From a virus (Duplodnaviria > Heunggongvirae > Uroviricota > Caudoviricetes): DNA of 34,596 bases. The stretch covers positions 1 to 34,596 of IMG/VR virus record IMGVR_UViG_2541047860_000003; one strand, written 5' to 3'. Positions 1 to 34,596 of the stretch are shown in pieces (within the stretch, counting starts at the first letter, position 1; each line of letters starts with the position of its first letter). The translations under genes and the position numbers were made by a program. The notes under the pieces were generated by a model. It was not told where the DNA came from and did no database searches. It was given only the letters and a program-made list of their open reading frames with translations.

Positions 1-1254
1 ATGCTGGAACAAATGGGCATTGCCGCGAAGCAAGCCTCGTATAAATTAGCGCAACTCTCCAGCCGCGAAAAAAATCGCGTGCTGGAAAAAATCGCCGATG
101 AACTGGAAGCACAAAGCGAAATCATCCTCAACGCTAACGCCCAGGATGTTGCTGACGCGCGAGCCAATGGCCTTAGCGAAGCGATGCTTGACCGTCTGGC
201 ACTGACGCCCGCACGGCTGAAAGGCATTGCCGACGATGTACGTCAGGTGTGCAACCTCGCCGATCCGGTGGGGCAGGTAATCGATGGCGGCGTACTGGAC
301 AGCGGCCTGCGTCTTGAGCGTCGTCGCGTACCGCTGGGGGTTATTGGCGTGATTTATGAAGCGCGCCCGAACGTGACGGTTGATGTCGCTTCGCTGTGCC
401 TGAAAACCGGTAATGCGGTGATCCTGCGCGGTGGCAAAGAAACGTGTCGCACTAACGCTGCAACGGTGGCGGTGATTCAGGACGCCCTGAAATCCTGCGG
501 CTTACCGGCGGGTGCCGTGCAGGCGATTGATAATCCTGACCGTGCGCTGGTCAGTGAAATGCTGCGTATGGATAAATACATCGACATGCTGATCCCGCGT
601 GGTGGCGCTGGTTTGCATAAACTGTGCCGTGAACAGTCGACAATCCCGGTGATCACAGGTGGTATAGGCGTATGCCATATTTACGTTGATGAAAGTGTAG
701 AGATCGCTGAAGCATTAAAAGTGATCGTCAACGCGAAAACTCAGCGTCCGAGCACATGTAATACGGTTGAAACGTTGCTGGTGAATAAAAACATCGCCGA
801 TAGCTTCCTGCCCGCATTAAGCAAACAAATGGCGGAAAGCGGCGTGACATTACACGCAGATGCAGCTGCACTGGCGCAGTTGCAGGCAGGCCCTGCGAAG
901 GTGGTTGCTGTTAAAGCCGAAGAGTATGACGATGAGTTTCTGTCATTAGATTTGAACGTCAAAATCGTCAGCGATCTTGACGATGCCATCGCCCATATTC
1001 GTGAACACGGCACACAACACTCCGATGCGATCCTGACCCGCGATATGCGCAACGCCCAGCGTTTTGTTAACGAAGTGGATTCGTCCGCTGTTTACGTTAA
1101 CGCCTCTACGCGTTTTACCGACGGCGGCCAGTTTGGTCTGGGTGCGGAAGTGGCGGTAAGCACACAAAAACTCCACGCGCGTGGCCCAATGGGGCTGGAA
1201 GCACTGACCACTTACAAGTGGATCGGCATTGGTGATTACACCATTCGTGCGTAA
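1..1254 (+). CDS. proA: gamma-glutamyl phosphate reductase (complete, 417 aa)
   Basis: Full ORF starting at the first base; translation [30 protein letters not shown]... matches the enterobacterial ProA sequence and length as I recall it; sits directly upstream of tRNA-Thr as in E. coli. Confidence 0.95.
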
Positions 1255-1368
1255 ATAAAACCGGGTGATGCAAAAGTAGCCATTTGATTCACAAGGCCAT
1301 TGACGCATCGCCCGGTTAGTTTTAACCTTGTCCACCGTGATTCACGTTCGTGAACATGTCCTTTCAGG

Positions 1369-1444
1369 GCCGATATAGCTCAGTTGGTAGAGCAGCGCAT
1401 TCGTAATGCGAAGGTCGTAGGTTCGACTCCTATTATCGGCACCA
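1369..1444 (+). tRNA. thrW: tRNA-Thr (anticodon CGU)
   Basis: 76-nt GCCGATATAGCTCAGTTGGTAGAGCAGCGCATTCGTAATGCG...GGTTCGACTCCTATTATCGGCACCA with D-loop, CGT anticodon loop, T-loop GGTTCGA and 3' CCA; a known prophage attachment locus next to proA. Confidence 0.9.
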
Positions 1445-1458
1445 TTAAAATCAATAAG

Positions 1459-2622
1459 TTACACATCATTAGTACCTTCCTTATTTTTTGACTGGGACAA
1501 ATTTGGGACCGATGGGTTCAGGATCGAGTCTATTTGCCGTGCGTGTTCGGTAAGGTGATTAGGTGCAAGGTGAGCATATCGACGAACCATTTCGATAGAC
1601 TCCCAGCCTCCCATTTCCTGTAACACTGACAACGGGACTCCGGCTTGAACCAGCCAACTTGCCCAGGTGTGTCTCAAGTCGTGAAATCTGAAATCATCAA
1701 TACCAGCCCGTCTCAGCGCCGCTTTCCAGGCTGTGTTTGCGTCATACCGCATCTTCCTTACTGTTGGCGCTTTCGTTCCGTCTGGTTTGGTACAGCTTTC
1801 CTTGTACACAAATACCCAACGGTGATGATTCCCGATTTGTTTTTTCAATACGCGACATGCAGTATCATTCAGCGCAACGCCAATTGCGCGGTTTGATTTA
1901 CTCTCTTCCGGGTTTATCCATGCCACCCGGCGCTGCATATCTATTTGTTGCCATTCAAGGTTGATGATGTTCGAGCGTCTTAAGCCTGTTGCCAGTGCAA
2001 ATTCAACAACAGACTTTAATGGCTCCGGACATTCATCAATCAGCCTTTGTGCTTCATGGGGCTCCAGCCAGCGGATCCGTTTATTCTTTGGTTGAGGCAC
2101 TTTAATAATTGGTGCCTTATCCAGCATTTTCCATTCACGCTCTGCGGCTCTTAGTAGGGCCTTTATAAATGAAAGATGCGTAGCCTTCGTTGCAACGGAC
2201 GCTGGTTTTGGCGTGTATTCTGGAACAGGTTTCCCTTTTTTTCTGCATGCTTCTGCCCTGAGTTTCCAGTTTTCCTCATGACGCCGGTTCGTCATTTTCT
2301 GCATTGCTGAATAAATTTTTGATTCAGTAATGTCTCTTAGTTGCATTCCTGCGAAATGTTGAAGCCAGAATCCGATCCGGCTTTTGTCATCGTCCAGTGA
2401 TTTTTTATGTGCTTTCTCTTCAAGCCACCTGACACACGCTTCCTCGAACGTTATATCAGGTATTTCACCAAGTTTGCTGACCCGCCATGCTTCAGCCTTT
2501 AGCTTGTCATGGAGTTCTGTCGCCTGCCTTTTGTCCTTTGTTCCAAGAGACTGTTTAAATCTTTTACCGTTCGGCAATGTGAAACTGGCGTACCATATTT
2601 CACCTCTGCGGAAGAGTGACAT
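1459..2622 (-). CDS. int: Tyrosine-type phage integrase
   Basis: 387-aa ORF 15 bp downstream of the tRNA; C-terminal catalytic region ...[42 protein letters not shown] fits the R..H-x-x-R..Y tyrosine recombinase signature. Confidence 0.85.
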
Positions 2623-2849
2623 TTTCTTTCCTCTGTTATGCCATCACCCGCGCTCACCTGGACAGTATGCAGCGGAGACTGAAGAGCCGCAATGCAGGCT
2701 TGTCGTGTTGTGAGGTAAGGAGATTTATTCTTAGTGGGATCTTTGCGTGTTGCCTGAAGACGCCCTGTGCGTATCCAGTTAATGGCAGTCGGTCTGGATA
2801 TCTTGAGAAAATGACAGGCCTCATCGAGTGTGAGGCTGTATGGCTCCAT
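2499..2849 (-). CDS. xis: Excisionase-like HTH protein (Xis/AlpA-type)
   Basis: Internal ATG at 2849 with SD AGAGGTGA; [31 protein letters not shown] resembles excisionase-family HTH; start overlaps the stop of the upstream gene (TAATG). Its 3' end overlaps the int start by about 120 nt, which is unusual. Confidence 0.55.
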
Positions 2850-3154
2850 TATTTCACCTCTTGCTGTGACATTGTTGAAAAATGGATACCAGCTCGTTGC
2901 TGCCAGACGATCCAACCGAGAGTCATATCCCATGCCATGTATTCGTTATTGCCGTTTTTTGCTCTCCGACGATCTACTAAGTCACCGAAACGCTTTTCCA
3001 TGAATAATTCATAAGCTTCGCGTTCATCTGGTTCTACTTCCAGAGATAGGAGTGCGATTTCATAAGCACGGCGCTCAATATCGTCTCGCACGTCAAGGCT
3101 GCTGATACGCTCTTTAATTTCTTTAATCAGTTCTTTGTCGGTAAAAGTGGTCAT
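2849..3154 (-). CDS. Small phage early protein (YfdT-like position)
   Basis: 101-aa ORF, acidic; last in a co-oriented, translationally coupled block (overlapping stop/start codons) upstream of xis-int; order matches yfdQ-R-S-T of E. coli CPS-53 by recollection. Confidence 0.45.
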   Translation of the reverse strand: MTTFTDKELIKEIKERISSLDVRDDIERRAYEIALLSLEVEPDEREAYELFMEKRFGDLVDRRRAKNGNNEYMAWDMTLGWIVWQQRAGIHFSTMSQQEVK

Positions 3155-3516
3155 TATGCTCCAGCCTCCGGTGCTTTTGGCATTACTGCCCAGTGAGTGA
3201 TATTGACGTTTTCAAGGTCCCCGACCTGAAATGTCCACTGCCATTCTCCGGTTTCTTTTTGTCCCCAGGTGTACCAGAGAGAACGCCAGCCAATTAGCCA
3301 GCCTTCTCCGTTAGCATCGAATAACAAAACACTTTCATTTGCTGGTGGCAGTTCAGTTGACACTGGTATTACTTTGTTTTCCTGTGCTGCACATTTAGCT
3401 TCAAGCGCATCGAATTTACGCACCAGGTATTCAGCATCTGTTTCATTTACTTTCAGATCTCGCGGTACACATCTCCCACGAAGAAACCCTTCCATTTCGA
3501 AAACATTCATGCGCAT
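3154..3516 (-). CDS. DUF551-like phage protein (YfdS-like)
   Basis: 120-aa ORF with Trp-rich C-terminal motif (GWLIGWRSLWYTWGQKETGEWQW) recalled for DUF551 phage proteins; SD GGAG 8 nt upstream of ATG. Confidence 0.5.
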   Translation of the reverse strand: MRMNVFEMEGFLRGRCVPRDLKVNETDAEYLVRKFDALEAKCAAQENKVIPVSTELPPANESVLLFDANGEGWLIGWRSLWYTWGQKETGEWQWTFQVGDLENVNITHWAVMPKAPEAGA

Positions 3517-4043
3517 TTGCGTAACTCCGATAACTCGTTAAAGCGTTCCATAAACATCCCGTAGGCATGGCCCGGTGCCAGTGGAATCACGTTGAACATC
3601 TCTGTTGCCGGGATACCTTCCAGTACAGGCCAGAAAGAGCCATCATCAAGCCCGAGATCGCGGCGTTCGGTTGCCAGCATGATGAGATCGGCATATTTCA
3701 CGGGCGTACTCATAACTGGGGGTAACCCGTATTTCTCACGGATTACGGCGTCTATTTTTTCTTCCATTTGTTTATAGTCAGGAAGAAGGCGTTTCAGTGG
3801 TGCGGGAATGTCCTGGCAATACGCTTCTGTTGCATCATGCATTAACGCTTCAAAAGCAAATTCCTGCGGCACCAGCTGGCTGCAAAGAACCGCATGTTGG
3901 GCGACGCTGTAGAAGTGCGAAAGATGACCGGCAAAGCGACAGATATTTGAAAGGGAAACCGCGATATCGTTAATATCGATGTCGTCTTTATTTATCCTGT
4001 CATAATAAAAATGCTTCCCGGAAAAAGTTTTAATAAATGACAT
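3507..4043 (-). CDS. HD-domain phosphohydrolase (YfdR-like)
   Basis: 178 aa from ATG at 4043 (SD GGAG); contains H...HD motif (HFYSVAQHAV...LMHDATEAY) typical of HD metal-dependent phosphohydrolases. Confidence 0.7.
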   Translation of the reverse strand: MSFIKTFSGKHFYYDRINKDDIDINDIAVSLSNICRFAGHLSHFYSVAQHAVLCSQLVPQEFAFEALMHDATEAYCQDIPAPLKRLLPDYKQMEEKIDAVIREKYGLPPVMSTPVKYADLIMLATERRDLGLDDGSFWPVLEGIPATEMFNVIPLAPGHAYGMFMERFNELSELRKCA

Positions 4044-4170
4044 TTTGTTCTCCACGTATATGCGCTGCACCGCGCTGAATTCTGGTAAAAAGAATCCCTC
4101 ACCATCCGGCGATTATTGAGTAAATTACGTTTCCATAAATGCCCCCGCAGGGGCATTTGCAGTAATGAAA

Positions 4171-4995
4171 TCAGGCGGTGAAAGTACCAATAAAGGTTTC
4201 TACTTTGCTGTCCTTGAATTTCTCAACAAGCAGATCACGAAATTCGTTAGCCATTTCTTCCTGCACCGCCTCCAGCTGAATAATGCGCAGAACCAGTACA
4301 GGACGATCGCCAGTGATAATACTGAGGCGTAATTTAAACGGACGTTCTTTCAGACCTTCAAACGGAACGCATTTAAATTCAAATGCCACTGGCATAATGT
4401 CTTTGGTCTTCGCTTCGACAGACTCCATCAGGGAGCGTTTGCCGCTGAAGTCATTATCTTCAAAATCAGCGGTCTGGTTTGCTTCAATCGTGATTTTACG
4501 GACAGCCGCAGCCGCTTTTGTTGCCTGAATAGCGTCACCATTAGCATCAAAGCCCACAAGATAGTCGGCCCAGTCTTCAATCCATTCTGCTAGTGACTTC
4601 TGGGAGTTACGCTCGCCGTTAACAGACAACAGAGCAGAGAACGGTGCTGTCTTTTTCAGTTTGAGTGTGGCGGTGTTATCTGCGTGACCTGGTTCATCAA
4701 TAGTACCTAGGTTAAGCACACTGACGGCACGCATATTATCAGCATCGATAAAGCAGCGGGTGCCTTCATCTGCAAGATCTTTAGAATAACGGGTAAAATC
4801 ATCGATGCTGGCAGTGGAAAGCGCACCACGGAAACGGAAGCGATTTAAATTAAATTTTTCCAGATCATGAATGCGGAAATTCTCAGGCAATGCCACAGCA
4901 TCGGCACCAATCTTACTGATAATTTCATTAACACCCTGAGCAGAAATAAGGGCATGGATTTGATTAATTGCGGTTGCGTCTAAGTTCTGAGACAT
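4171..4995 (-). CDS. YfdQ-like (DUF2303-type) prophage protein
   Basis: 274-aa ORF; size and position match YfdQ of CPS-53-type prophages by recollection; no catalytic motif recognised. Confidence 0.55.
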
Positions 4996-5060
4996 AATAA
5001 GTCCTCACTATATAAAGATATTCAGTGATGAGATAAATAATCAGTTAATTAAAAACGATA

Positions 5061-5423
5061 TTAACGACCTGCTGCGCGGAGTTTTCCGTCAGGTTCACCG
5101 GCAAGAGTCAGCAACTGTCCCTGGTCTTCCTGCAGAATAGTCAGGCGACCACCGCGATTGACATACATCGGCGTTTCGGTGGTGTCTTCTTCGGAAATTT
5201 TCCCGCGGTTAGTCGGGCGAACATATGAGAGTTTGTGTTTGATTTTCACTCGGTTCTCATCAAACGGTTCGATTTCTAGGTTGAGCGAGACCTTACCTTT
5301 GGTTTTCGTGTTCATCACACCGGAAGCGACTTCACTGAGAACTGCGCCGATTTTGGTTTCAAATACGCCGCCGTCCAGCTCCCCGATAAATGCCTGCACA
5401 TCAGTACTGCGTTCGCTAGCCAT
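5061..5423 (-). CDS. YfdP-like small prophage protein
   Basis: Start assigned to internal ATG at 5423 preceded by SD GAGGAG with 7-nt spacer; the longer 226-aa reading extends into a GC-rich hairpin region and has no RBS. Confidence 0.5.
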   Translation of the reverse strand: MASERSTDVQAFIGELDGGVFETKIGAVLSEVASGVMNTKTKGKVSLNLEIEPFDENRVKIKHKLSYVRPTNRGKISEEDTTETPMYVNRGGRLTILQEDQGQLLTLAGEPDGKLRAAGR

Positions 5424-5891
5424 TTTGCTGCTCCTCATCATATCGACCCTGCAAGGTCGGTTAGTTTCTCCACAAAACAGAGAAGAACACCTGCGGTGAC
5501 TGCCGCCCGGATGGATTGGGTTATGAGCCCGTCGTCCGGTGATGCTCTTCTCTGTTTTGTAAAAAGGACGGTACCAGCCGGAAGCAAGGGTACAAGCTGG
5601 TACCGCCAAGACTACACACAGCATAAAGTTGTGGTGCCGGGTGCCTCCCGGTGCCTGGCGAAGGTTGCACACCAGGCGGGTGGGTATCCACAGAAGGTCG
5701 ACTGTCAGCCTCAACCTTAACCCGCGTGCGCTGAGCCGCATTCACCACAACGCTAAGGATTCTCTCTGGTTGAAAATACTTAGCTGTTATGTGCCTGCTT
5801 TTAGCCACATCAGGCGAGGTGGACCTAGTTATTCCCCAACAACAAGGATTCGGTTAATCTGGTTATCCCCAACAACGCAAAAGGAAAAGAA

Positions 5892-6326
5892 ATGTCCGGT
5901 AATATCTATACGCTGTACAAATCCCACTGTGAAAATGTTGGAAAGTATCGGGGCATTGAAATCAGTGGGGTAGTGTCATCAGTCGAAATAAGCAAAGTTG
6001 AATCAAGGGCAACATTACTTACTCTTTTGGACCTTGTCTTACATGAGCACCGGAAGAAATTCGGCACTCCCTATAATCAGTTGAATGGGAAAAAGGCTCT
6101 GGTTCACCTTATTCTGATGAAGCATCACTGGATGCCAAAACAGATTAATGAGATGAAATTTGATGAACTTCTTCTTTCAATTCAGGATGAACTCACACTT
6201 GATAAAATAAGCGTAACCGCCCAGAAATTTTTAGATTATCGAGACTGGAGATCACAAATTCATCACTTTGATGATTTTGACGAAAATGAATGGGATCCTA
6301 ATTTGTCTGCACAATATCTAAAGTAA
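5892..6326 (+). CDS. Hypothetical 144-aa protein (AT-rich cargo gene in immunity region)
   Basis: ATG at 5892 with AAGGA SD; visibly AT-richer than the flanking phage genes; convergent with and overlapping the 68-aa minus-strand gene; no recognisable motif. Confidence 0.5.
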   Translation: MSGNIYTLYKSHCENVGKYRGIEISGVVSSVEISKVESRATLLTLLDLVLHEHRKKFGTPYNQLNGKKALVHLILMKHHWMPKQINEMKFDELLLSIQDELTLDKISVTAQKFLDYRDWRSQIHHFDDFDENEWDPNLSAQYLK

Positions 6327-6504
6327 CATCCTGTGATAAAACCGTGATTTCCTGATCCAGTTTTTTTAAGGAGTCTATTGTTTCCTGTCGATAAGACAGC
6401 ACTTCACGAAGCTGGTTTATAGCTGCCAGCTTCTTTGTCATCCACTCATAAATTTCCTCATCTGTGTAGCCAGGCGCGACGATTTTGGGTTCTGTTTTGT
6501 GCAT
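6298..6504 (-). CDS. Hypothetical 68-aa protein, first gene downstream of predicted PL
   Basis: ATG at 6504 preceded by GAGGAG with 7-nt spacer; predicted coiled-coil-like, not Arg-rich, so not an obvious N homolog. Confidence 0.45.
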   Translation of the reverse strand: MHKTEPKIVAPGYTDEEIYEWMTKKLAAINQLREVLSYRQETIDSLKKLDQEITVLSQDVTLDIVQTN

Positions 6505-6549
6505 TTCACATCTCCTCAAGTTATCAGTTACTTGTTGATGGGGACCAGA

Positions 6550-6561
6550 TTGTTAAAGAGC
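6550..6561 (-). promoter_or_regulatory. boxA-like element (GCTCTTTAACAA) on the leftward early transcript
   Basis: Minus-strand GCTCTTTAACAA matches 11 of 12 positions of the E. coli rrn boxA (TGCTCTTTAACAA) as recalled, 3 nt after a hairpin, between predicted PL and the first leftward gene. Confidence 0.4.
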
Positions 6562-6564
6562 TAA

Positions 6565-6586
6565 GCGTCCTGTAGGGCGCTTTTTT
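6565..6586 (+). terminator. Plus-strand hairpin plus T6 run (putative terminator for the 144-aa gene)
   Basis: GCGTCCTGTAGGGCGC followed by TTTTTT; on the opposite strand the same hairpin immediately precedes an rrn-like boxA. Confidence 0.4.
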
Positions 6587-6754
6587 GTTGCTAACGAATC
6601 ATCCTGGACTTCATATGCCCCAGGCGGCTACTTCGTGGGCGTCCTGCCTGTTCGTTTTTGACATTTACTGACTGCTTACGACACATGCACCGTGTTGCAA
6701 CCAGATTTTGTTGTAATCCTGTAGTTGGTCTGGAACAAAAGATAAAATTAAATT

Positions 6755-6796
6755 GTGAGATATGCAAGTGGTATTTGCGTGATATGCAAGTTGATA
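6755..6796 (-). promoter_or_regulatory. Putative OL/PL operator-promoter region
   Basis: Contains TTGCGTGATA, the same 10-mer present in the cI-cro intergenic region, plus direct repeat ATATGCAAGT twice; lies just beyond the cI terminator. Confidence 0.4.
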
Positions 6797-6800
6797 GGTA

Positions 6801-6823
6801 ATAAAAAGCCACCTTTCGGTGGC
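6801..6823 (-). terminator. Intrinsic terminator downstream of cI
   Basis: Minus-strand hairpin GCCACCGAAAGGTGGC followed by TTTTTAT, about 20 bp after the cI stop. Confidence 0.5.
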
Positions 6824-6842
6824 CGATGGAAGGATATTGAGG

Positions 6843-7535
6843 TTAATTATGTCTCTTAAGGGTTTGAGACTGACTGATTAAGACCTTTCCAAAGACCATG
6901 AATCGGTGTTCGTTTTCGCTAGTAATTCCCCATTCACGGTAAATCTGGTTATCAGAAATCACCAGCAGTTTGTCAGGAATCATTTGAAGTCTTTTAACGT
7001 ATATTTTGTCATCAAAACCAAAGACATATATACCATCACCATCAAACTGATTGATGCTGACATCAACGAAGATGAGATCTCCTGGCTCAATGGTTGGACA
7101 CATACTGTCCCCACGAACGTTGATAACTTTGATGTGATTGGCTGGTCGTCCGCCGAACATTGATACAGCATTATCAGTTCTGTATTCGATGGCATGAATC
7201 ACATCAATGACATCACCGCCCTGGATAAGGCCATTTCCCGCACTGGCACTGATATCCAGCATTTCAATACGGAACACATCCTTCACCTGCGCAACATCCT
7301 CATTATTACTGTTTTTATATACAGTATTACTTTTGTGGGCAGAGGTAAAGAGATCAGCAATATCAACACCTAAGCTCTTGGCAATATTACTCAGTGTTTG
7401 TTCGGTAAATTGTTTTTGCTTACCCGTTTCTAAGCGCGAGATGTTCGCCGCATCTACTCCTATTGCTTCAGCGAGATCGGCGATTTTCATGTTCTTCGCT
7501 TGGCGAAGTTGTCTGACTCGGTTTCCTATGTTCAT
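6843..7535 (-). CDS. cI: CI-type phage repressor (HTH + S24 LexA-like peptidase)
   Basis: N-terminal HTH (QAKNMKIADLAEAIGVDAANISRLETGK), Ala-Gly site (SASAGNG), S24 motifs (GDSM ... KR); divergent from cro across an operator-bearing intergenic region. Confidence 0.9.
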   Translation of the reverse strand: MNIGNRVRQLRQAKNMKIADLAEAIGVDAANISRLETGKQKQFTEQTLSNIAKSLGVDIADLFTSAHKSNTVYKNSNNEDVAQVKDVFRIEMLDISASAGNGLIQGGDVIDVIHAIEYRTDNAVSMFGGRPANHIKVINVRGDSMCPTIEPGDLIFVDVSINQFDGDGIYVFGFDDKIYVKRLQMIPDKLLVISDNQIYREWGITSENEHRFMVFGKVLISQSQTLKRHN

Positions 7536-12740: not shown

Positions 12741-12757
12741 TCTTGTGGAGAAAGTTG

Positions 12758-13135
12758 ATGCGTGATATTCAAATGGTTCTGGATCGTTGGGGAGCATGGG
12801 CGGCGAGTGATAGTTCAGGAGTAGACTATTCTCCTATAGCTGCTGGGTTTAAAGGGCTTCTTCCCTATACAAGCAAAACACGTCAGGCATGTTCAGATAG
12901 TGATGCATTAATTATTGAAAGTTGTCTTGCTCGTCTAAGGCAAAAAAGGCCGGACGAACATTCGCTTCTTGTTGCCCATTATCTATACGGTATCTCTAAA
13001 AGAAAGCTCGCCAAGGCTCGTAAAAAGGATGAGAAACTAATACGCATTGAGATACAGATGGCTGAGGGGTTTATTGATGGCTGCCTATCGATGTTGGAAA
13101 TTAGTCTAGAGATGGACCCCGAAGTTAAAGATTGA
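12758..13135 (+). CDS. Late-gene antiterminator Q (QuuD / phage 21-type)
   Basis: MRDIQMVLDRWGAWAASD...IAAGFKGLLPY matches the QuuD-type Q N-terminus as recalled; ATG at 12758 after GGAG SD. Confidence 0.75.
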   Translation: MRDIQMVLDRWGAWAASDSSGVDYSPIAAGFKGLLPYTSKTRQACSDSDALIIESCLARLRQKRPDEHSLLVAHYLYGISKRKLAKARKKDEKLIRIEIQMAEGFIDGCLSMLEISLEMDPEVKD

Positions 13136-13141
13136 TTATTG

Positions 13142-13164
13142 AAGCCCGATTACTCGGGCTTTTG
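13142..13164. terminator. Hairpin terminator shared by Q (+) and the convergent 339-aa gene (-)
   Basis: AAGCCCGA-TTAC-TCGGGCTT followed by TTTG on the plus strand; the 339-aa gene stop codon lies in the loop. Confidence 0.6.
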
Positions 13165-14169
13165 TTCCACATCTCGAACATAGAGAATTACTGCTGACTT
13201 AATGTCACCATCGACGTGTTTTGCGTTAATGCTCAAATGTACAGGCTTTCTTTCCCACTCAGCTCGCTGCAATGCTTCTTTGTTTCCGGATTCATCAAGG
13301 AAAACATCCTGAACTACGCAGGTTAGACGTTGGTCGGTATCTACGCGTCGGACCTTAACTTTGAAACTCTCTGGGTCAGTATTATTGACTTCTTCAATTC
13401 GGTAAATACCATCAATCCTCATTTCTGATGAACGTCTACGAGCATTCGTAACCAACTCTTTCGCCATTTCAGAATCAATAGTAACGCCATCAATTTGAGC
13501 GTTATCTGAACGCACAAAGGATTTGACCATTTGGGTTTTAGCGTCATACGACATACGGTCCATGTTATCGAGAAGTGGTTTTTCCGCAATCATTTCTGAA
13601 ATAACCCGCAGGCGTTTAGTTTCTTGTTCGCTCATGATCTGCATAGTCCGGAGATGTTCTTTCTCTCCATCCTTAGCAATTTCTGCAAGGCGAATATCTT
13701 TGCGGTTGTCCAAGAACCGTTTAAATACTGTTACTCCGCCCCAGATGACTGCTGCGCCGAGAACAGTAAACATGATCTCAGTTGCGTTCATTTTACCAAC
13801 AAGTTCCTGTGTGAGTTTGGTTAAAAAGCCATCAATATTGATTTCTACTATTGAAGAACCTTGTTCTACCGTAACTTCTATTTCTAGGGCATCAAGTTCT
13901 TCTTTGGTCAGTTTGCGGACGTCAGGGACACCGTACTTGGCAAGGGCATATGATTTGTTGATTTGAGCTTGCATTTCAACAAATCCCTTCATAACTGAAG
14001 GTGTTAGCGATCTGTTGAATTTTTCACCGGTTAATCTGATGGTAAGGTTTGGCCATCCGTTGAAACTTAAACTGTCAGGTAAACCATAACCATCAAGATA
14101 GCTTTCAAGCAAATCGAAGGCTTGCTGCTCAGATTCAATGTCTACATGAATCTCATCAAACTTATCCAA
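13150..14169 (-). CDS. Hypothetical 339-aa single-pass membrane protein (reverse-oriented cargo between Q and lysis genes)
   Basis: Long ORF on the opposite strand to all flanking late genes; TTG start preceded by GAGGA with 7-nt spacer; one hydrophobic segment near the middle (ATEIMFTVLGAAVIWGGVTVF); AT-richer than neighbours; no recognisable catalytic motif. Confidence 0.6.
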   Translation of the reverse strand: MDKFDEIHVDIESEQQAFDLLESYLDGYGLPDSLSFNGWPNLTIRLTGEKFNRSLTPSVMKGFVEMQAQINKSYALAKYGVPDVRKLTKEELDALEIEVTVEQGSSIVEINIDGFLTKLTQELVGKMNATEIMFTVLGAAVIWGGVTVFKRFLDNRKDIRLAEIAKDGEKEHLRTMQIMSEQETKRLRVISEMIAEKPLLDNMDRMSYDAKTQMVKSFVRSDNAQIDGVTIDSEMAKELVTNARRRSSEMRIDGIYRIEEVNNTDPESFKVKVRRVDTDQRLTCVVQDVFLDESGNKEALQRAEWERKPVHLSINAKHVDGDIKSAVILYVRDVEQKPE

Positions 14170-14341
14170 AAGTATGTCCTCATTCTAAGCCAACTGTCAC
14201 CGTGAGGTTTGGCAACGCCTGCTTTATTTTTCGTTTTAAGCTGTGTGGCAAAAAAATAATGGAAAAACAGATAAAAATCACTAACGCGGTCCGCATTTTC
14301 TAGATTACTGTGTTAAGAGTGGTTACTTCGCCACGCAGCTT

Positions 14342-14366
14342 AAACCCGCCGTCGAGCGGGTTTTGT
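14342..14366 (+). terminator. tR'-like terminator downstream of the presumed late promoter
   Basis: AAACCCGC-CGTCGA-GCGGGTTT followed by TTTGTC, about 150 bp upstream of the holin; PR' -35/-10 elements could not be placed with confidence. Confidence 0.45.
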
Positions 14367-14515
14367 CATTTCTGGGCCTTGGTATTCGTTGGGCTTGGTC
14401 TCTCTAGTACTTATCCATTGGCTCGGCTTCTTTTACGTTTCCGCTTCTGGTTTGCGGTTCGTGGTACTCCCTCAATTTGCACCTCCTGTATCGGCGAGGT
14501 GAGAGATAACTACAA

Positions 14516-14842
14516 ATGCCTCATAACCCAAATACTTGGCTGGAGTTGGTCCAGAGCTGGTGGCGTGGAGACACGCCGCTGGGCGCAGTAATTATGTCGA
14601 TCGTTATGGCTGGCTTGCGCATTGCCTATTTTGGCGGTGGTGGTGGCTGGAAGCGAAAAACGCTCGAGATTTTGCTCTGTGGCGCTCTGACACTGACTTT
14701 TGCATCCGCTCTTGAGTATGTCGGATGGCCTAAATCACTTTCTGTTGCCATTGGTGGTGGAGTGGGGCTGATCGGTGTCGATGCTATTCGTGGGGCAGCA
14801 ATGCGAGTAATCGGTAACAAATTTGGTGGCTCTAAGGAGTAA
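14516..14842 (+). CDS. Holin (lambda S-like topology)
   Basis: 108 aa with hydrophobic helices, a GGGGG turn and a charged C-terminus; immediately precedes the R-Rz-Rz1 genes. Confidence 0.6.
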   Translation: MPHNPNTWLELVQSWWRGDTPLGAVIMSIVMAGLRIAYFGGGGGWKRKTLEILLCGALTLTFASALEYVGWPKSLSVAIGGGVGLIGVDAIRGAAMRVIGNKFGGSKE

Positions 14843-15811: not shown

Positions 15812-16105
15812 TTATTGTGAGCAATACACCCGCGCTTCCAGCGGAGTATAAATGCCTAAAGTAATAAAACCGAGCAATCCATTTACGAATGTTTGCTGGG
15901 TTTCTGTTTTAACCACATTTTCTGCGCCGCCACAAATTTTGGCTGCATCAACAGTTTTCTCCTGTCCAATTCCCGAAACGAAGAAATGATGGGTGATGGT
16001 TTCCTTTGGTGTTACTGCTGTCGGTTTGTTTCCAACAGTAAACGTCTGTTGAGCACATCCTGTAATAAGCATTGCCAGAGCGGCAGAAAACAACATTTTT
16101 TTCAT
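15812..16105 (-). CDS. bor: Bor lipoprotein (serum-resistance moron)
   Basis: 97 aa from ATG at 16105 (AGGA SD); MKKMLFSAALAMLITGCAQQTFTV...EARVYCSQ matches lambda Bor. Confidence 0.85.
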   Translation of the reverse strand: MKKMLFSAALAMLITGCAQQTFTVGNKPTAVTPKETITHHFFVSGIGQEKTVDAAKICGGAENVVKTETQQTFVNGLLGFITLGIYTPLEARVYCSQ

Positions 16106-16285
16106 CTTATTATCCTGCATTGTTAAAAACGGCAGAATCCTATGTGACAACAATTAAACGATAGTTAAATGGATTGATGAAAATTAAAACTATATAGGTG
16201 TACGGTCAGACTATTGGAGGTAGTCAGGATTTGAATGTCAGTCTGTTGTCGGCATTCTGGCAATGCAATTTGGATAAAGCGGGGA

Positions 16286-20569: not shown

Positions 20570-21908
20570 CATAAGCGCTAACTTAAGGGTTGAACCATCT
20601 GAAGAATGCGACGCCTCGGTGCCTCGTTAAGACGATGCCTCGCGTTCTTCAATTGCGTTTTGTAGGCTGTCAGGGATACTGTCCCACGAATGGCCACCTG
20701 TAAGCTCCAGATGACCATTTTTGTTATTCTCCACAACGAGTTAGTTCTTCTTTTCGGATCCGGCACTTCTGGGGGGGAAATCCAGCGATGGCTGGATTAT
20801 GTCGTCAATTAAAAATGCGGCGAGTAGATTAGCAAATATCCACGCTTTCGCGAGTTCAGGTTCCTTTGCACGCAAAGCATCCAGGTGCAGCAAACTTTTG
20901 AGCCGCTTAAAAGCCAGTTCAATTTGCCATCGCAGACGGTAACAATCAGCCACTTGCTCTGCTGAATATTCATCTTCCGGTAATGATGTTAGCAATAGCA
21001 CATGGCCCGCTGCTTCCAGCGTTTCCGCCTGAACTACTCGTCCTTTTCGACGATTCTCGCTGAGCAGTCGGGTTTTACTGATTAATGCTTTTTCGGGAGG
21101 AAGTGATACGGCAATGAGACGTGCCGGAAAGGGAGCTCCGGCTTTTTTATTACCTGAATTGCCTATCATTACAGTGGTTTCACCGTTCTTACCGCAATCC
21201 AGCCCGCGCAGAAAACCCATCATGTCAAAGCGCATTCCTTCTGCAGTTAACCAGCGCAATCCTCGCCAGTGAACCCGGACGATATAATCAGCTTCTCCAA
21301 AAGCAAGTGAGCGGATACATTCGGGACGCGAACCGAATCCCCGGTCAGCAATGCGTATCTCGTCTGCCGTTTGCGCAAATCGGTCCAGCCGTTCAGCGTC
21401 TCTGCTGTCGGTTAGCTCAAAATCAGTGAACTGACAGGTATGAGGATCATATCCCATATGTAGTCGCCATTCAGCGCTGCCGCCCCCGGGCGCACTGATT
21501 GCTGTTCCATCGACAAGACGCAATCTCTTTCCGCTTGTACAACCCGTAACTGCGGCGCGTACAGCAAGTGTTTGTGCGGCAAGTATGCCAAACCAGTCGG
21601 CGGCATTCCGCAGCCGCTTCAGGAGAGCCACGTCAGATAATGTTGCAACGTCATGGAGCTGAGCCCATGCAGTGACTTCACGTAATGACATCCCCCCGGG
21701 GCCGTAAGCCAGCCCCAGACGTAGCAGAGTTGCAGCATCACGAATTTCGCGGCGGCGGGTTAGAGCCCCGGCATTACGTGCCGAAGTATCCAGTTCTTCG
21801 GGCTTACCAATATGGGCCAGAATTGCTGACCAGTTATCGTGAGAGTAATTCATCGGCACGTTAAATCATATCAGGCGTAATACCACAACCCTTAAGTTAG
21901 CGCTTATG
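20570..21908 (-). mobile_element. IS186 (IS4 family), complete copy
   Basis: Perfect 23-bp terminal inverted repeats CATAAGCGCTAACTTAAGGGTTG / CAACCCTTAAGTTAGCGCTTATG; flanked by 10-bp direct duplication GGATATGAAG (20560..20569 and 21909..21918). Confidence 0.9.
20741..21859 (-). CDS. insL: IS186 transposase
   Basis: 372-aa ORF; translation NYSHDNWSAILAHIGKPEELDTSARNAGALTRRREIRD... matches the IS186 transposase as I recall it. Confidence 0.9.
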   Translation of the reverse strand: MPMNYSHDNWSAILAHIGKPEELDTSARNAGALTRRREIRDAATLLRLGLAYGPGGMSLREVTAWAQLHDVATLSDVALLKRLRNAADWFGILAAQTLAVRAAVTGCTSGKRLRLVDGTAISAPGGGSAEWRLHMGYDPHTCQFTDFELTDSRDAERLDRFAQTADEIRIADRGFGSRPECIRSLAFGEADYIVRVHWRGLRWLTAEGMRFDMMGFLRGLDCGKNGETTVMIGNSGNKKAGAPFPARLIAVSLPPEKALISKTRLLSENRRKGRVVQAETLEAAGHVLLLTSLPEDEYSAEQVADCYRLRWQIELAFKRLKSLLHLDALRAKEPELAKAWIFANLLAAFLIDDIIQPSLDFPPRSAGSEKKN

Positions 21909-33915: not shown

Positions 33916-34337
33916 GAAAAACACTCCTGGCATTAATCGTTATCTTGGGGTCAGTTTGGAGATCGGAAATTTCTGTACGTTAAGCGCATTATTTAACCAA
34001 TCTTGGTTCGTAAGGGGTTGATTTTGCGTCAGTGGCTATCGCTTTTAAGTTGTCGCTCTTGCAGTATCGCATTTAGGTTATCCGATTAAGGTCAAACCTC
34101 TGAAAATGCCGTATAGCGCGGGAGTACACCCTATTGCGATAGCGCGATCTGTTCAAAAAACAGGCTTAACGTACAATAATTTCCGATCTCCAAACTCACC
34201 CCTTATTCACGCTGGCCAACCTGTTTCGGGCGGACCAAATGATACGTCAGTGGGAGAGATCTCACTAAAAACTGGGGATAGCGCCTTAAATGGCGAAGAA
34301 ACGGTCTAAATAGGCTGATTCAAGGCATTTACGGGAG

Positions 34338-34596
34338 GGTGATGCTGCCAACTTACTGATTTAGTGTATGATGGTGTTTTTGAGGTGCTCCAGTGGCTTC
34401 TGTTTCTATCAGCTGTCCCTCCTGTTCAGCTACTGACGGGGTGGTGCGTAACGGCAAAAGCACCGCCGGACATCAGCGCTATCTCTGCTCTCACTGCCGT
34501 AAAACATGGCAACTGCAGTTCACTTACACCGCTTCTCAACCCGGTACGCACCAGAAAATCATTGATATGGCCATGAATGGCGTTGGATGCCGGGCA
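34338..34596 (+). mobile_element. IS1 left end (partial, continues beyond window)
   Basis: Starts with the IS1 terminal repeat GGTGATGCTGCCAACTTACTGATTTAGTGTATGATGG and continues into insA; matches IS1 from memory. Confidence 0.9.
34393..34596 (+). CDS. insA: IS1 InsA (5' portion, truncated by window end)
   Basis: GTG start; translation [68 protein letters not shown] matches IS1 InsA. Confidence 0.85.

Follow-up and report, generated by a model that had tools for sequence, protein, structure and literature searches.

The open reading frame (ORF) at positions 13150..14169 on the minus strand of the window, that is, the whole 34,596-nucleotide stretch of prophage DNA analysed here, encodes a 339-aa protein that is best explained as a single-gene moron, the product of which is expressed in the lysogen, anchored in the inner membrane and active in phage exclusion or abortive infection. 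This explanation is held here with roughly even confidence. A role in defence is plausible and was predicted independently by DefensePredictor, and, among temperate phages, the gene moves from one moron slot to other, unrelated ones.

The ORF begins at a TTG codon (14167-14169), and a GAGGA Shine-Dalgarno sequence (14177..14181, minus strand) can be read from the sequence 7 nt upstream of it. The RefSeq entry WP_000357056.1, a 'hypothetical protein', has the identical frame and start, and the leftward 339-aa frame, the TTG start and the GAGGA motif of the original prediction are thus all borne out. Diverged homologs keep the TTG start together with a GAGG(A/G) Shine-Dalgarno sequence; such a conserved weak start would fit a dose-sensitive membrane protein. 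The dN/dS values of 0.014-0.042, with saturated synonymous divergence, are very low and uniform over all the domains of the product, and judged by this conservation the ORF is a real, strongly conserved gene under purifying selection. Its GC content (0.40-0.43) is below that of the upstream region (0.53-0.58) and of the holin gene (~0.52), as expected from the earlier description of the ORF as more AT-rich than its neighbours; the neighbouring Q gene, however, is as AT-rich as the ORF, and therefore Q and the ORF constitute a single low-GC block.

The antiterminator Q gene (12743..13135, plus strand; Pfam Phage_antitermQ, E = 3e-52) is convergent with the ORF, and a convergent junction of ~17 bp between Q and the homolog was observed in 47 of the 80 sampled loci. 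Between the two 3' ends in the window lies a GC-rich hairpin (13141..13162) with a 9-bp stem and a 4-nt loop, which has a folding energy of -14.7 kcal/mol (z = -4.2) that none of 200 shuffled sequences equalled. The TAA stop codon of the ORF (13150-13152) is located inside the loop, and the stable fold and the position of the stop codon agree with the earlier proposal of a terminator shared by the two genes. The sharing itself does not stand, as a U-tract is present on the plus (Q) strand only, the tail on the ORF strand being CAAUAAUC; the hairpin is therefore by its sequence a terminator for Q, but not clearly for the ORF.

The cargo slot is bounded on its right side by a conserved block (14277..14336, plus strand) that is kept in all the Q-slot loci whatever the divergence of the cargo and is also present beyond different cargo in the phages cdtI and SfIV. 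Its position and the known lambdoid architecture suggest that it is the late promoter and Q-utilisation region (PR'/qut). A tR'-like intrinsic terminator identified by a terminator scan (14342..14373, plus strand; fold -12.5 kcal/mol) lies between this block and the holin gene and is conserved along with the block, and rightward of the slot the late genes begin with that of a lambda-family holin (14516..14842, plus strand; Pfam Phage_holin_3_1, E = 6e-25). Thus, the ORF is located between Q and PR', outside the late transcript. Its site had been equated with that of stx, nmpC and lc, which does not hold, since the stx-type position is downstream of tR' and the ORF lies upstream of PR', without Q control. 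The block upstream of the ORF was also considered as the promoter of the ORF and was rejected, being the plus-strand PR'/qut and tR' region common to phages with other cargo. A scan for sigma-70 promoters of the ORF gave only sites with 9 of 12 matches, no more than in shuffled sequences, and no conserved promoter was found in the 115 nt upstream of the ORF; a promoter of its own, as assumed at first, is not supported, with no convincing sigma-70 site and none conserved.

A search with the product against the HMM of phrog_6191 (PHROGs v4) gave a full-length match (E = 1.6e-152, residues 3-337 to positions 2-337 of 338); PHROGs labels this family 'unknown function'. The ORF had been proposed as an undescribed system, a description that needs to be qualified in that it already belongs to a PHROG family and is listed among the predicted defence genes of a published study. 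Profile searches retrieved ~1,500 relatives, counted as representatives of 50% identity clusters, across Enterobacterales, Pseudomonas, Acinetobacter, Moraxella, Pasteurella, Vibrio and Burkholderiales. Relatives were found in only 3 of 50,697 deposited phage genomes, and the family is nearly absent from plasmids. Neither the query nor the distant or longer members scanned had a match above threshold in Pfam, NCBIfam or PADLOC; PADLOC offered no family for the query (E <= 10) and, for 10 distant members (E <= 0.01), nothing except one chance-level match to Cas13d, while PDB sequences searched with the profile yielded chance matches only. A match to the gpJ FNIII-A domain (Pfam E = 0.002) appeared attractive at first, the Pseudomonas homolog adjoining a J gene; it was set aside as noise, being confined to 5 of 42 members and always short of the cutoff. 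Similarly discarded was DUF7947 on the C-terminal domain, a below-threshold match confined to an Acinetobacter subgroup and without mention in the literature searched. Neither the accession WP_000357056.1 nor the PHROG number was found in the main texts of that literature.

[quoted passage not shown] The ORF is present in 87 E. coli genomes as against 602 that carry a related Q, and is absent from SfV, SfII, SfIV and cdtI, phages that share its flanks; its base composition also differs from that of surrounding genes. These observations, together with homologs in other moron slots, support its status as an accessory moron, i.e. optional phage cargo, as had been foreseen. The ORF was found intact at >=99% identity in 86 genomes. 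The prophage in the window carries an IS within its portal gene, yet the ORF is kept intact. A survey of the slot in related phages, which had been suggested as a check, revealed that cdtI and SfIV carry other reverse-oriented cargo between the same landmarks. This alternative cargo (cdtI orf53/54 and SfIV gp48/49) is not recognisable as defence genes, and the Q-to-PR' slot is therefore not demonstrably a defence hotspot.

The homologs occupy several further positions. A cI-type repressor gene immediately precedes the homolog, on the same strand, in 16 of the 80 loci sampled; this is the position of rexAB in lambda. Loci of Salmonella, Morganella, Acinetobacter and Moraxella Mcat17 were read individually, and cI-to-homolog gaps of 31-148 nt were measured in four loci so read; no terminator was detected between cI and the homolog in the two junctions scanned, and in Morganella a strong terminator lies beyond the gene. 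In tail operons, homologs are found beside the tape measure gene or between gpI-like and gpJ-like genes. In one such subgroup (L085-L092) the homolog immediately precedes a 136-aa ORF and the tape measure gene; the copies of this subgroup and of Pseudomonas are co-oriented with the tail genes. A Mu-like phage carries its homolog among middle and late genes, and the Pasteurella phage Pmp14 has a full-length member that follows, at a distance of 85 nt, a retron type VI reverse transcriptase and its HTH partner. No partner gene is conserved across these contexts, a 100-aa ORF preceding the gene in Acinetobacter only. The most distant members, being on contigs of insufficient length, did not contribute to the contexts. 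The repressor-operon position of the homologs makes expression in lysogens likely; for the window copy it stays an inference, because no convincing promoter was found there.

The product was analysed for its domain organisation, all the segments being encoded on the minus strand. An acidic alpha/beta N-terminal domain (residues 1-126; 13792..14169) is the best conserved part, and no structural neighbour was found for its model. It is followed by a hydrophobic helix (residues 132-149; 13723..13776), a probable single membrane span, and by a juxtamembrane basic cluster and helical stalk (residues 150-220; 13510..13722). Among 182 non-redundant relatives almost no charge occurs at any of the 18 positions of the hydrophobic helix, and its median apparent insertion energy is +0.6 kcal/mol as against +10 for the best segment elsewhere; its KD19 values are 1.2-2.3. 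By the insertion energy the helix is only marginally hydrophobic. It contains the small residues G138, A140, G144 and G145 and aromatic residues at positions 143 and 149. The basic positions K150, R156, K157 and R160 are conserved, and the AF2 model places helices at 146-163, 167-174, 181-196 and 198-218.

The C-terminal domain (residues 246-335; 13165..13434) is predicted to adopt an OB-fold. In the model (pLDDT ~80-90) the strands 254-265, 268-275, 281-287, 309-319 and 322-333 would form a five-stranded barrel with a helix (296-306) between strands 3 and 4, and the predicted domain is structurally similar to established OB-folds; among its best structural matches are metal chaperones of the periplasm and toxin B subunits that bind glycans. 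The net charge of this domain is -3 here and -1.0 +/- 2.4 over the family. The product had been described as one central hydrophobic helix flanked by two soluble domains. The helix was confirmed in this position, and the part that follows it resolves into a helical stalk of ~70 aa, a small beta/alpha unit and an OB-fold of ~90 aa. No conserved His, Cys or acidic residue of catalytic type was found in the relatives, in agreement with the earlier reading, in which no catalytic motif was recognised; with no enzyme-like motif, the protein should be a binder and membrane effector and not a nuclease. In addition, neither a signal peptide nor a lipobox was detected in the product. A surface or virulence factor, the other function once considered, is not supported, as a single helix of inner-membrane type and the lack of a signal peptide do not suggest surface exposure.

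In Table S10 of the DefensePredictor study (Science 2026), WP_000357056.1 is given as a 'Predicted novel defense gene' with a mean log-odds of 6.55 against a cutoff of 4. Among the rows listed, the accession occurs in this table of predictions only and not in Tables S6-S8, it is not among the cloned and validated systems DS-1 to DS-45, and no motifs of the family are given in the supplementary rows listed. The same source reports that 45% of the cloned predictions were validated against 24 phages. The validated DS-17, at 332 aa of the same length as the 332-aa homologs, was examined as a possible cI-linked homolog and rejected as an unrelated NucS/PD-(D/E)XK nuclease. Among the observations that count against the defence reading are a low and uniform dN/dS, unlike the rapid evolution that is common in defence sensors, and the lack of PADLOC similarity for the query as well as for distant members.

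Among known systems, PdpSau, AbiP and HK97 gp15 are the closest analogues, the ORF product being homologous to none of them. PdpSau of Staphylococcus aureus Sa2-type prophages and the lactococcal AbiP are membrane-anchored abortive infection proteins with an OB-fold-like domain, and pdpSau, linked to the lysis module, is accessory cargo as well (PMC10127798). As in these proteins, a single protein of a mobile element would combine one membrane helix with a C-terminal OB-type fold, predicted to be cytoplasmic, and no enzymatic domain. Their layout, a helix at the N-terminus and behind it a basic OB-like domain in the cytoplasm, is not that of the ORF product, in which the helix is central, after a conserved acidic domain of 126 aa that they lack, and a helical stalk of ~70 aa is inserted; moreover, its OB domain is near-neutral, whereas the C-terminus of PdpSau is basic and nucleic-acid-binding, and the hosts are Gram-negative. 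For sequence homology to AbiP or PdpSau, compared through the PADLOC models only, no family match was obtained. HK97 gp15, the first 'moron', is a small, YebO-like superinfection-exclusion protein of the inner membrane (PMC3594210). Its insertion into the inner membrane as prophage-expressed cargo would be shared by the ORF product, and one subgroup of the family is found near the gp15 tail slot; the ORF product differs in its 339 aa, its two folded domains and its lack of similarity, and the window copy differs in its Q-PR' slot.

[quoted passage not shown] A single protein with an N-out single span and an elongated cytoplasmic part, here predicted, is common to both and in both suggests the genome-entry site; unlike SNIPE, the ORF product has no DUF4041, GIY-YIG or nuclease motif and carries the 126-aa N-terminal domain. 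A Foldseek search of BFVD gave as its best full-length match a 370-aa phage protein annotated DUF6575 (E = 1.3e-6 over 332 columns), at a TM-score of only ~0.3 and 6% identity and without a Pfam or PADLOC sequence match. DUF6575 is present in one validated E. coli PD defence system (Vassallo et al. 2022). The likeness between the models may be taken as a lead and not as a relationship. The RexAB system of lambda consists of two proteins, the soluble RexA and the four-span RexB. The location of the 16 homologs immediately behind a co-directional cI gene and the presence of a membrane component are shared with RexAB, the location applying to homologs and not to the window copy; the ORF product differs as one protein with one helix, with no conserved partner and no homology to either Rex.

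The preferred explanation, a membrane-anchored anti-phage protein, may be outlined as follows. The gene would be transcribed in the lysogen, in many phages probably at the distal end of the repressor operon, while the window copy would be shielded from late transcription between Q and PR' and weakly translated from its TTG start. The sequence of helix 132-149 suggests an inner-membrane anchor that probably drives oligomerisation. By the positive-inside rule, the basic cluster, the stalk and the OB-fold may be cytoplasmic and the acidic N-terminal domain periplasmic. A superinfecting phage would be sensed at the membrane and its infection halted there; the N-terminal domain could touch the ejection or tape-measure apparatus, or alternatively the OB-fold could bind nucleic acid or protein of the incoming phage. 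The halt would most likely be abortive, through depolarisation of the membrane by clustered helices in a PdpSau-like manner, with a non-abortive block of genome entry as a close alternative. Some features do not sit easily with this explanation. In an N-out orientation a 126-aa domain would have to be exported with no signal peptide, an unusual requirement; the hydrophobicity of the helix is marginal, and the OB domain is near-neutral, unlike the basic C-terminus of PdpSau. In addition, the co-orientation of several tail-operon copies with the tail genes may leave room for a virion-related role.

Direct, non-abortive superinfection exclusion, in which genome translocation is blocked at the inner membrane and the cell survives, is a somewhat unlikely alternative. 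HK97 gp15 and P22 SieA block genome translocation at the inner membrane in this way, with survival of the cell. The ORF product would bind, for example, an entry factor of the inner membrane, or the tape measure or ejection proteins of the incoming phage. Homologs adjoin tape measure and gpJ-like genes, the tape measure position being close to the HK97 gp15 slot; a single-pass layout with a large conserved acidic domain of non-cytoplasmic type and the absence of a toxic or enzymatic domain would also suit such a function, and SNIPE provides a membrane-anchored protein that acts precisely at genome entry. Against it, there is no homology to gp15, SieA or other known superinfection-exclusion proteins, the predicted cytoplasmic stalk and OB-fold of ~190 residues exceed the needs of a simple plug, and the nearest architectural analogues, PdpSau and AbiP, are abortive.

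It is also conceivable, at a distinctly low probability, that the family represents a new class of single-protein phage sentinel, with a periplasmic N-terminal domain, a SAR-like helix and a cytoplasmic OB-fold acting at the injection site. The acidic N-terminal domain would recognise the incoming ejection or tape-measure apparatus from the periplasm, the weakly hydrophobic Gly/Ala-rich helix would relay or answer the local perturbation of the membrane, and the stalk and OB-fold would seize an early phage protein or the end of the genome as it enters. Self and non-self would then be told apart by location at the injection site, with no nuclease involved.

A lysogenic-conversion or fitness factor outside phage defence, with an envelope, stress or host-interaction function, is equally improbable. 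The functions of morons are diverse (PMC3594210), and a Bor/Iss serum-resistance lipoprotein is encoded in the same prophage. The metal chaperones and toxin B subunits among the OB-fold matches, the failure to find similarity to known defence proteins and the very strong purifying selection would be in keeping with such a role. However, the hosts of the family have very different lifestyles, their common trait being prophage residence; the repressor-operon position and the retron neighbour are typical of immunity or defence cargo, the DefensePredictor score is defensive, and a signal peptide or lipobox for surface display is lacking.

A function in the life cycle of the phage itself, as an ejection or tail membrane factor, a lysis-timing regulator or a lysis-lysogeny sensor, is very improbable. 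The embedded, co-oriented copies in the tail operons of Pseudomonas and of the L085-L092 subgroup, the copy among the middle and late genes of the Mu-like phage, the proximity of the window copy to Q and the lysis cassette, and the strong sequence constraint all speak for it. A core function would, however, not relocate among the immunity region, the Q-PR' gap and the tail operon, nor would a core gene run antisense to the late genes outside the late transcript; the gene is missing from SfV, SfII, SfIV, cdtI and most prophages with the same Q, and from all but three of the deposited phage genomes. Finally, a chance frame or an annotation artefact antisense to real signals, which the non-ATG start, the orientation antisense to the neighbours and the promoter scan without a hit might suggest, has next to no probability, being refuted by the dN/dS values with saturated synonymous divergence and by full-length homologs down to ~30% identity in many genera, and opposed by the confident AF2 model and the start context conserved in homologs.

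If the defence reading is true, the family would be among the more widespread uncharacterised families of prophage cargo in Gammaproteobacteria and beyond. In the absence of a Pfam, PADLOC or NCBIfam model for it, the present defence-annotation tools miss the family entirely. The gene is a single unit of ~1 kb, and the natural variants linked to the cI operon supply native expression signals. The Q-PR' slot, in which at least three different kinds of reverse-oriented cargo are found, may yield further cargo genes. With an N-terminal domain that lacks structural neighbours and with no enzymatic motif, the mechanism of the ORF product would add to the few membrane-level, non-nucleolytic anti-phage strategies, such as those of gp15, SieA and PdpSau/AbiP, which are poorly understood.

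The leftward gene at 13150-14169 (-) of the window encodes a protein of 339 aa from a TTG start, as originally predicted, and RefSeq gives the same frame and start for an E. coli locus of 100% identity (WP_000357056.1, 'hypothetical protein'). The expected Shine-Dalgarno sequence GAGGA is found at 14177-14181 (-), 7 nt upstream of the TTG, and since the TTG and a preceding GAGG(A/G) are kept in homologs down to ~70% identity, the start call is considered sound; inefficient initiation of translation seems to have been selected for. The TAA stop codon (13150-13152) lies inside the 4-nt loop of a hairpin with a 9-bp stem (13141-13162; dG -14.7 kcal/mol, z = -4.2, with 0 of 200 shuffles folding equally well), which had been taken as a terminator shared with the convergent antiterminator gene Q (12743-13135, +). 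However, a U-tract follows the stem on the + strand only, the tail on the strand of the studied gene being CAAUAAUC, which points to an intrinsic terminator for Q and not clearly for the studied gene. The GC content of the gene (0.40-0.43) is lower than that of the left side (0.53-0.58) and the holin gene (~0.52), but Q is just as AT-rich.

Profile searches identified the protein as a full-length member of phrog_6191 (E = 1.6e-152), labelled 'unknown function' in PHROG, while none of the Pfam, NCBIfam and PADLOC models scored above threshold for it or for distant members. A word-indexed search recovered 101 clusters of relatives, down to ~30% identity and every one 'hypothetical', from Enterobacterales, Pseudomonas, Acinetobacter and Burkholderiales. 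An exhaustive profile search at E <= 1e-3 gathered 1,513 cluster representatives (clusters at 50% identity), of which 588 reach E <= 1e-30; the best 150 of the 1,513 are 256-430 aa long, usually 320-360, and almost all of them align with the profile over its whole length. In pairwise comparisons with diverged homologs for which dS is estimable, dN/dS amounts to 0.014-0.042 (dN 0.006 and dS 0.29 against the homolog at locus L033). Against three further loci (L037, L039 and L042) dS is saturated (1.5-2.1), with protein identity still at ~90-96%. This is a real, constrained gene of a large unannotated family, and the constraint, as judged from these comparisons, seems unusually tight for a putative defence gene and uniform over all three regions of the protein.

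An AlphaFold2 model built from a 42-sequence alignment (mean pLDDT 83.9, pTM 0.65) divides the protein into four parts. The first, an acidic alpha/beta domain of residues 1-126 (net charge -10; -5.4 +/- 3.4 over the family), is the best-conserved part, with nearly invariant W39, P40, G48, Q67, L87, E91, G104 and S105. The sole hydrophobic segment, the single central helix of the original prediction, comprises residues 132-149, 18 positions at which charged residues are almost absent in 182 non-redundant relatives and at which the small residues G138, A140, G144 and G145 and aromatics at 143 and 149 are conserved. Its summed energy on the Hessa scale (median +0.6 kcal/mol, compared with +10 for the best segment in the rest of the protein) would befit a genuine membrane-type helix of only marginal hydrophobicity. 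Conserved basic positions follow it (K150, R156, K157 and R160), against K126 only on its N-terminal side, and by the positive-inside rule this cluster would place the C-terminal part in the cytoplasm. A helical stalk of ~70 residues succeeds the cluster in the model and leads to a predicted OB-fold at residues 246-335, for which nucleic-acid binding is not particularly favoured because its charge is near-neutral. As anticipated, no catalytic motif emerged, there being no conserved His, Cys or acidic catalytic-type residue anywhere in the protein, and the impression is of a binder or membrane effector, not of an enzyme. Foldseek searches against viral models gave three loose full-length matches (TM ~0.3) to uncharacterised phage proteins, one of them annotated DUF6575.

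Neither the accession nor the PHROG number turned up in the paper texts searched. In its supplement, DefensePredictor (DeWeirdt, Mahoney and Laub, Science 2026, PMC13092281) does include WP_000357056.1, as a 'Predicted novel defense gene' with a mean log-odds of 6.55 (range 4.5-9.7; cutoff 4) and no resemblance to known defence proteins by HHblits or Foldseek; 1,041 clusters of this sort came from 3,000 E. coli genomes. It was not one of the 94 cloned units: in the available part of the supplement, the tables of tested systems contain neither the accession nor the family motifs. Of the predictions cloned in that study, 45% protected against at least one of 24 phages, a useful prior (PMC13092281). 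Thus, with a PHROG family and a published prediction list in existence, the gene is not wholly undescribed, but for its N-terminal domain no known fold relative was found.

The gene is carried by 87 of 5,426 complete E. coli genomes, 86 of these copies having at least 99% identity, whereas a near full-length relative of Q occurs in 602; deposited phage genomes gave three distant matches in 50,697 records, and the family is essentially never present on plasmids. In a set of 80 viral-contig loci, the gene and Q converge at a ~17-bp junction in 47, with varying downstream lysis cassettes; in 16 the gene immediately follows a cI-type repressor gene in the same orientation, and in two it is near the end of a J-like gene. 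One 100%-identical copy (IMG/VR UViG_2636415906_000007) departs from this otherwise close association with Q, as no Q or DUF968 gene was detected in the 3 kb past its 3' end. The cI-linked arrangement, confirmed individually in Salmonella, Morganella, Acinetobacter and Moraxella phage Mcat17, shares the immunity-operon layout of lambda cI-rexA-rexB; the cI-to-gene gap lacks a terminator-like site in the two loci scanned, and in Morganella a strong terminator directly follows the family gene. DS-17, a validated DefensePredictor system considered as a cI-linked homolog (shared length 332 aa), was rejected as an unrelated NucS-type nuclease. Elsewhere, the homolog lies between gpI-like and gpJ-like tail genes in P. 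aeruginosa, between early and late genes in a Mu-like phage and, in the group of loci L085-L092, inside the tail operon, where a small ORF and the tape measure gene closely follow it. The last position is close to that of HK97 gene 15, the original moron, which encodes an inner-membrane superinfection-exclusion protein (PMC3594210). In Pasteurella phage Pmp14 (L014 3653-6017), an HTH gene, a type VI retron reverse transcriptase (PADLOC RT_VI, E = 2e-88) and, 85 nt downstream, a full-length family member (hhalign probability 99.4%) share one strand. No partner gene is conserved over these contexts. In three Acinetobacter loci (L008 5560-5862, L016 5550-5852, L017 148-450) a conserved 100-aa ORF without Pfam or PADLOC match always just precedes the homolog and may be a lineage-specific partner; a GGDEF-domain gene lies downstream in two of them. 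The gene is accessory, in agreement with the original prediction, and mobile between moron slots.

Alignment of the upstream regions of 16 diverged loci revealed a strongly conserved block at ~14277-14336 (+), after which a terminator scan placed a terminator at 14342-14373 (+), ahead of the holin gene (14516-14842, +). The block was rejected as a promoter of the studied gene, as block and terminator also lie beyond other reverse-oriented cargo, namely orf53/orf54 in phage cdtI, which shares this Q (block at L098 5401-5460), and gp48/gp49 in SfIV, which shares the holin (block at L099 3005-3064). From position and known lambdoid architecture, they would represent a Q-dependent late promoter and Q-utilisation site (PR'/qut) with a tR'-type terminator, and the layout would therefore be Q, variable reverse-oriented cargo, PR'/qut with tR', and holin. 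The equation of this site with that of stx, nmpC and lc does not hold, the gene being upstream of PR', outside the late transcript and without Q control; the hairpin 3' of Q would shield it from rightward read-through. A promoter of its own had been expected, and none that is convincing was detected in the remaining ~115 nt upstream. The stretch 14277-14373 (+) would specify a short 6S-like leader transcript with a conserved palindrome, GCGGTCCGC, and the minus strand of the block holds a terminator-like hairpin (14297-14283) that could protect the cargo gene against transcription running leftward. Of the cargo genes of cdtI (L098 3945-5333) and SfIV (L099 1460-2882), which are of unknown function, one encodes a DUF6731 protein and none has a PADLOC entry; the slot could be a hotspot for cargo in general.

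The prophage in the window, from E. coli, combines lambdoid early and lysis genes with a head of the HK97 type and a contractile tail. Immediately beyond its Rz/spanin genes, a further reverse-oriented cargo gene (15812-16153, -; GC 0.39-0.41) encodes a Bor-family lipoprotein (Pfam Lambda_Bor, E = 1e-30), the increased-serum-survival protein Iss of RefSeq. Relative to E. coli strain C10, an insertion of ~1.3 kb (20570-21907) with a DDE transposase (20741-21859, -) lies inside the portal gene, the flanking alignments overlapping by 11 bp in what looks like a target-site duplication; this copy of the prophage is probably impaired in making particles, with the studied gene intact. Downstream of the prophage's own cI-type repressor (6843-7535, -), the region 5741-6843 contains a 144-aa ORF (5892-6326, +) without Pfam match, which may be another cargo gene, as homologs of the studied gene occupy this slot in other phages. 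The right end (34337-34596) matches several IS1 copies in C10, and the left 6.5 kb (1-6513; host aldehyde dehydrogenase, integrase at 1459-2622 and early-left genes including DUF2303) is unlike C10, so that the arrangement or insertion context differs among related prophages.

Composition and presence/absence mark the gene as a moron, and its product belongs to phrog_6191 and, by its predicted C-terminal domain, to the OB-fold class. Neither homology to known defence proteins nor the defining domains or homology of AbiP/PdpSau, SNIPE, RexAB, gp15, SieA or any PADLOC family were found. Moron behaviour, repressor-operon linkage, gp15-like and retron-adjacent positions, the machine-learning score and the retention of an intact gene in a prophage with an IS-interrupted portal gene nevertheless make anti-phage defence the probable function, plausibly as a lysogen-expressed protein shielding host and prophage from other phages. 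Against this weigh the neutral OB domain, the marginal helix, the strong uniform purifying selection, a 126-aa N-terminal domain needing export without a signal peptide and the co-orientation of some copies with tail genes. A close alternative, though an unlikely one, is a non-abortive block of genome entry in the manner of gp15 or SieA. The reading given an even chance, a membrane sentinel, is favoured by its precedents: PdpSau and AbiP, architecturally the nearest, are abortive-infection proteins that combine a membrane anchor with an OB-like domain in the cytoplasm, pdpSau being cargo linked to the lysis module (PMC10127798), and SNIPE was shown by experiment to cross the membrane once, N-out and with a cytoplasmic effector, at the place where the genome is injected (PMC13190303). 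Such a sentinel at the inner membrane would sense infection there and abort it, probably through membrane depolarisation by clustered Gly/Ala-rich helices. The protein may work like AbiP/PdpSau or SNIPE despite belonging to neither, and could provisionally be classed with prophage-encoded membrane-anchored exclusion or abortive-infection proteins. As one among many predicted defence genes it would alone not surprise a specialist; it is a good, cheap experimental target, and its family constitutes a widespread blind spot of annotation tools.
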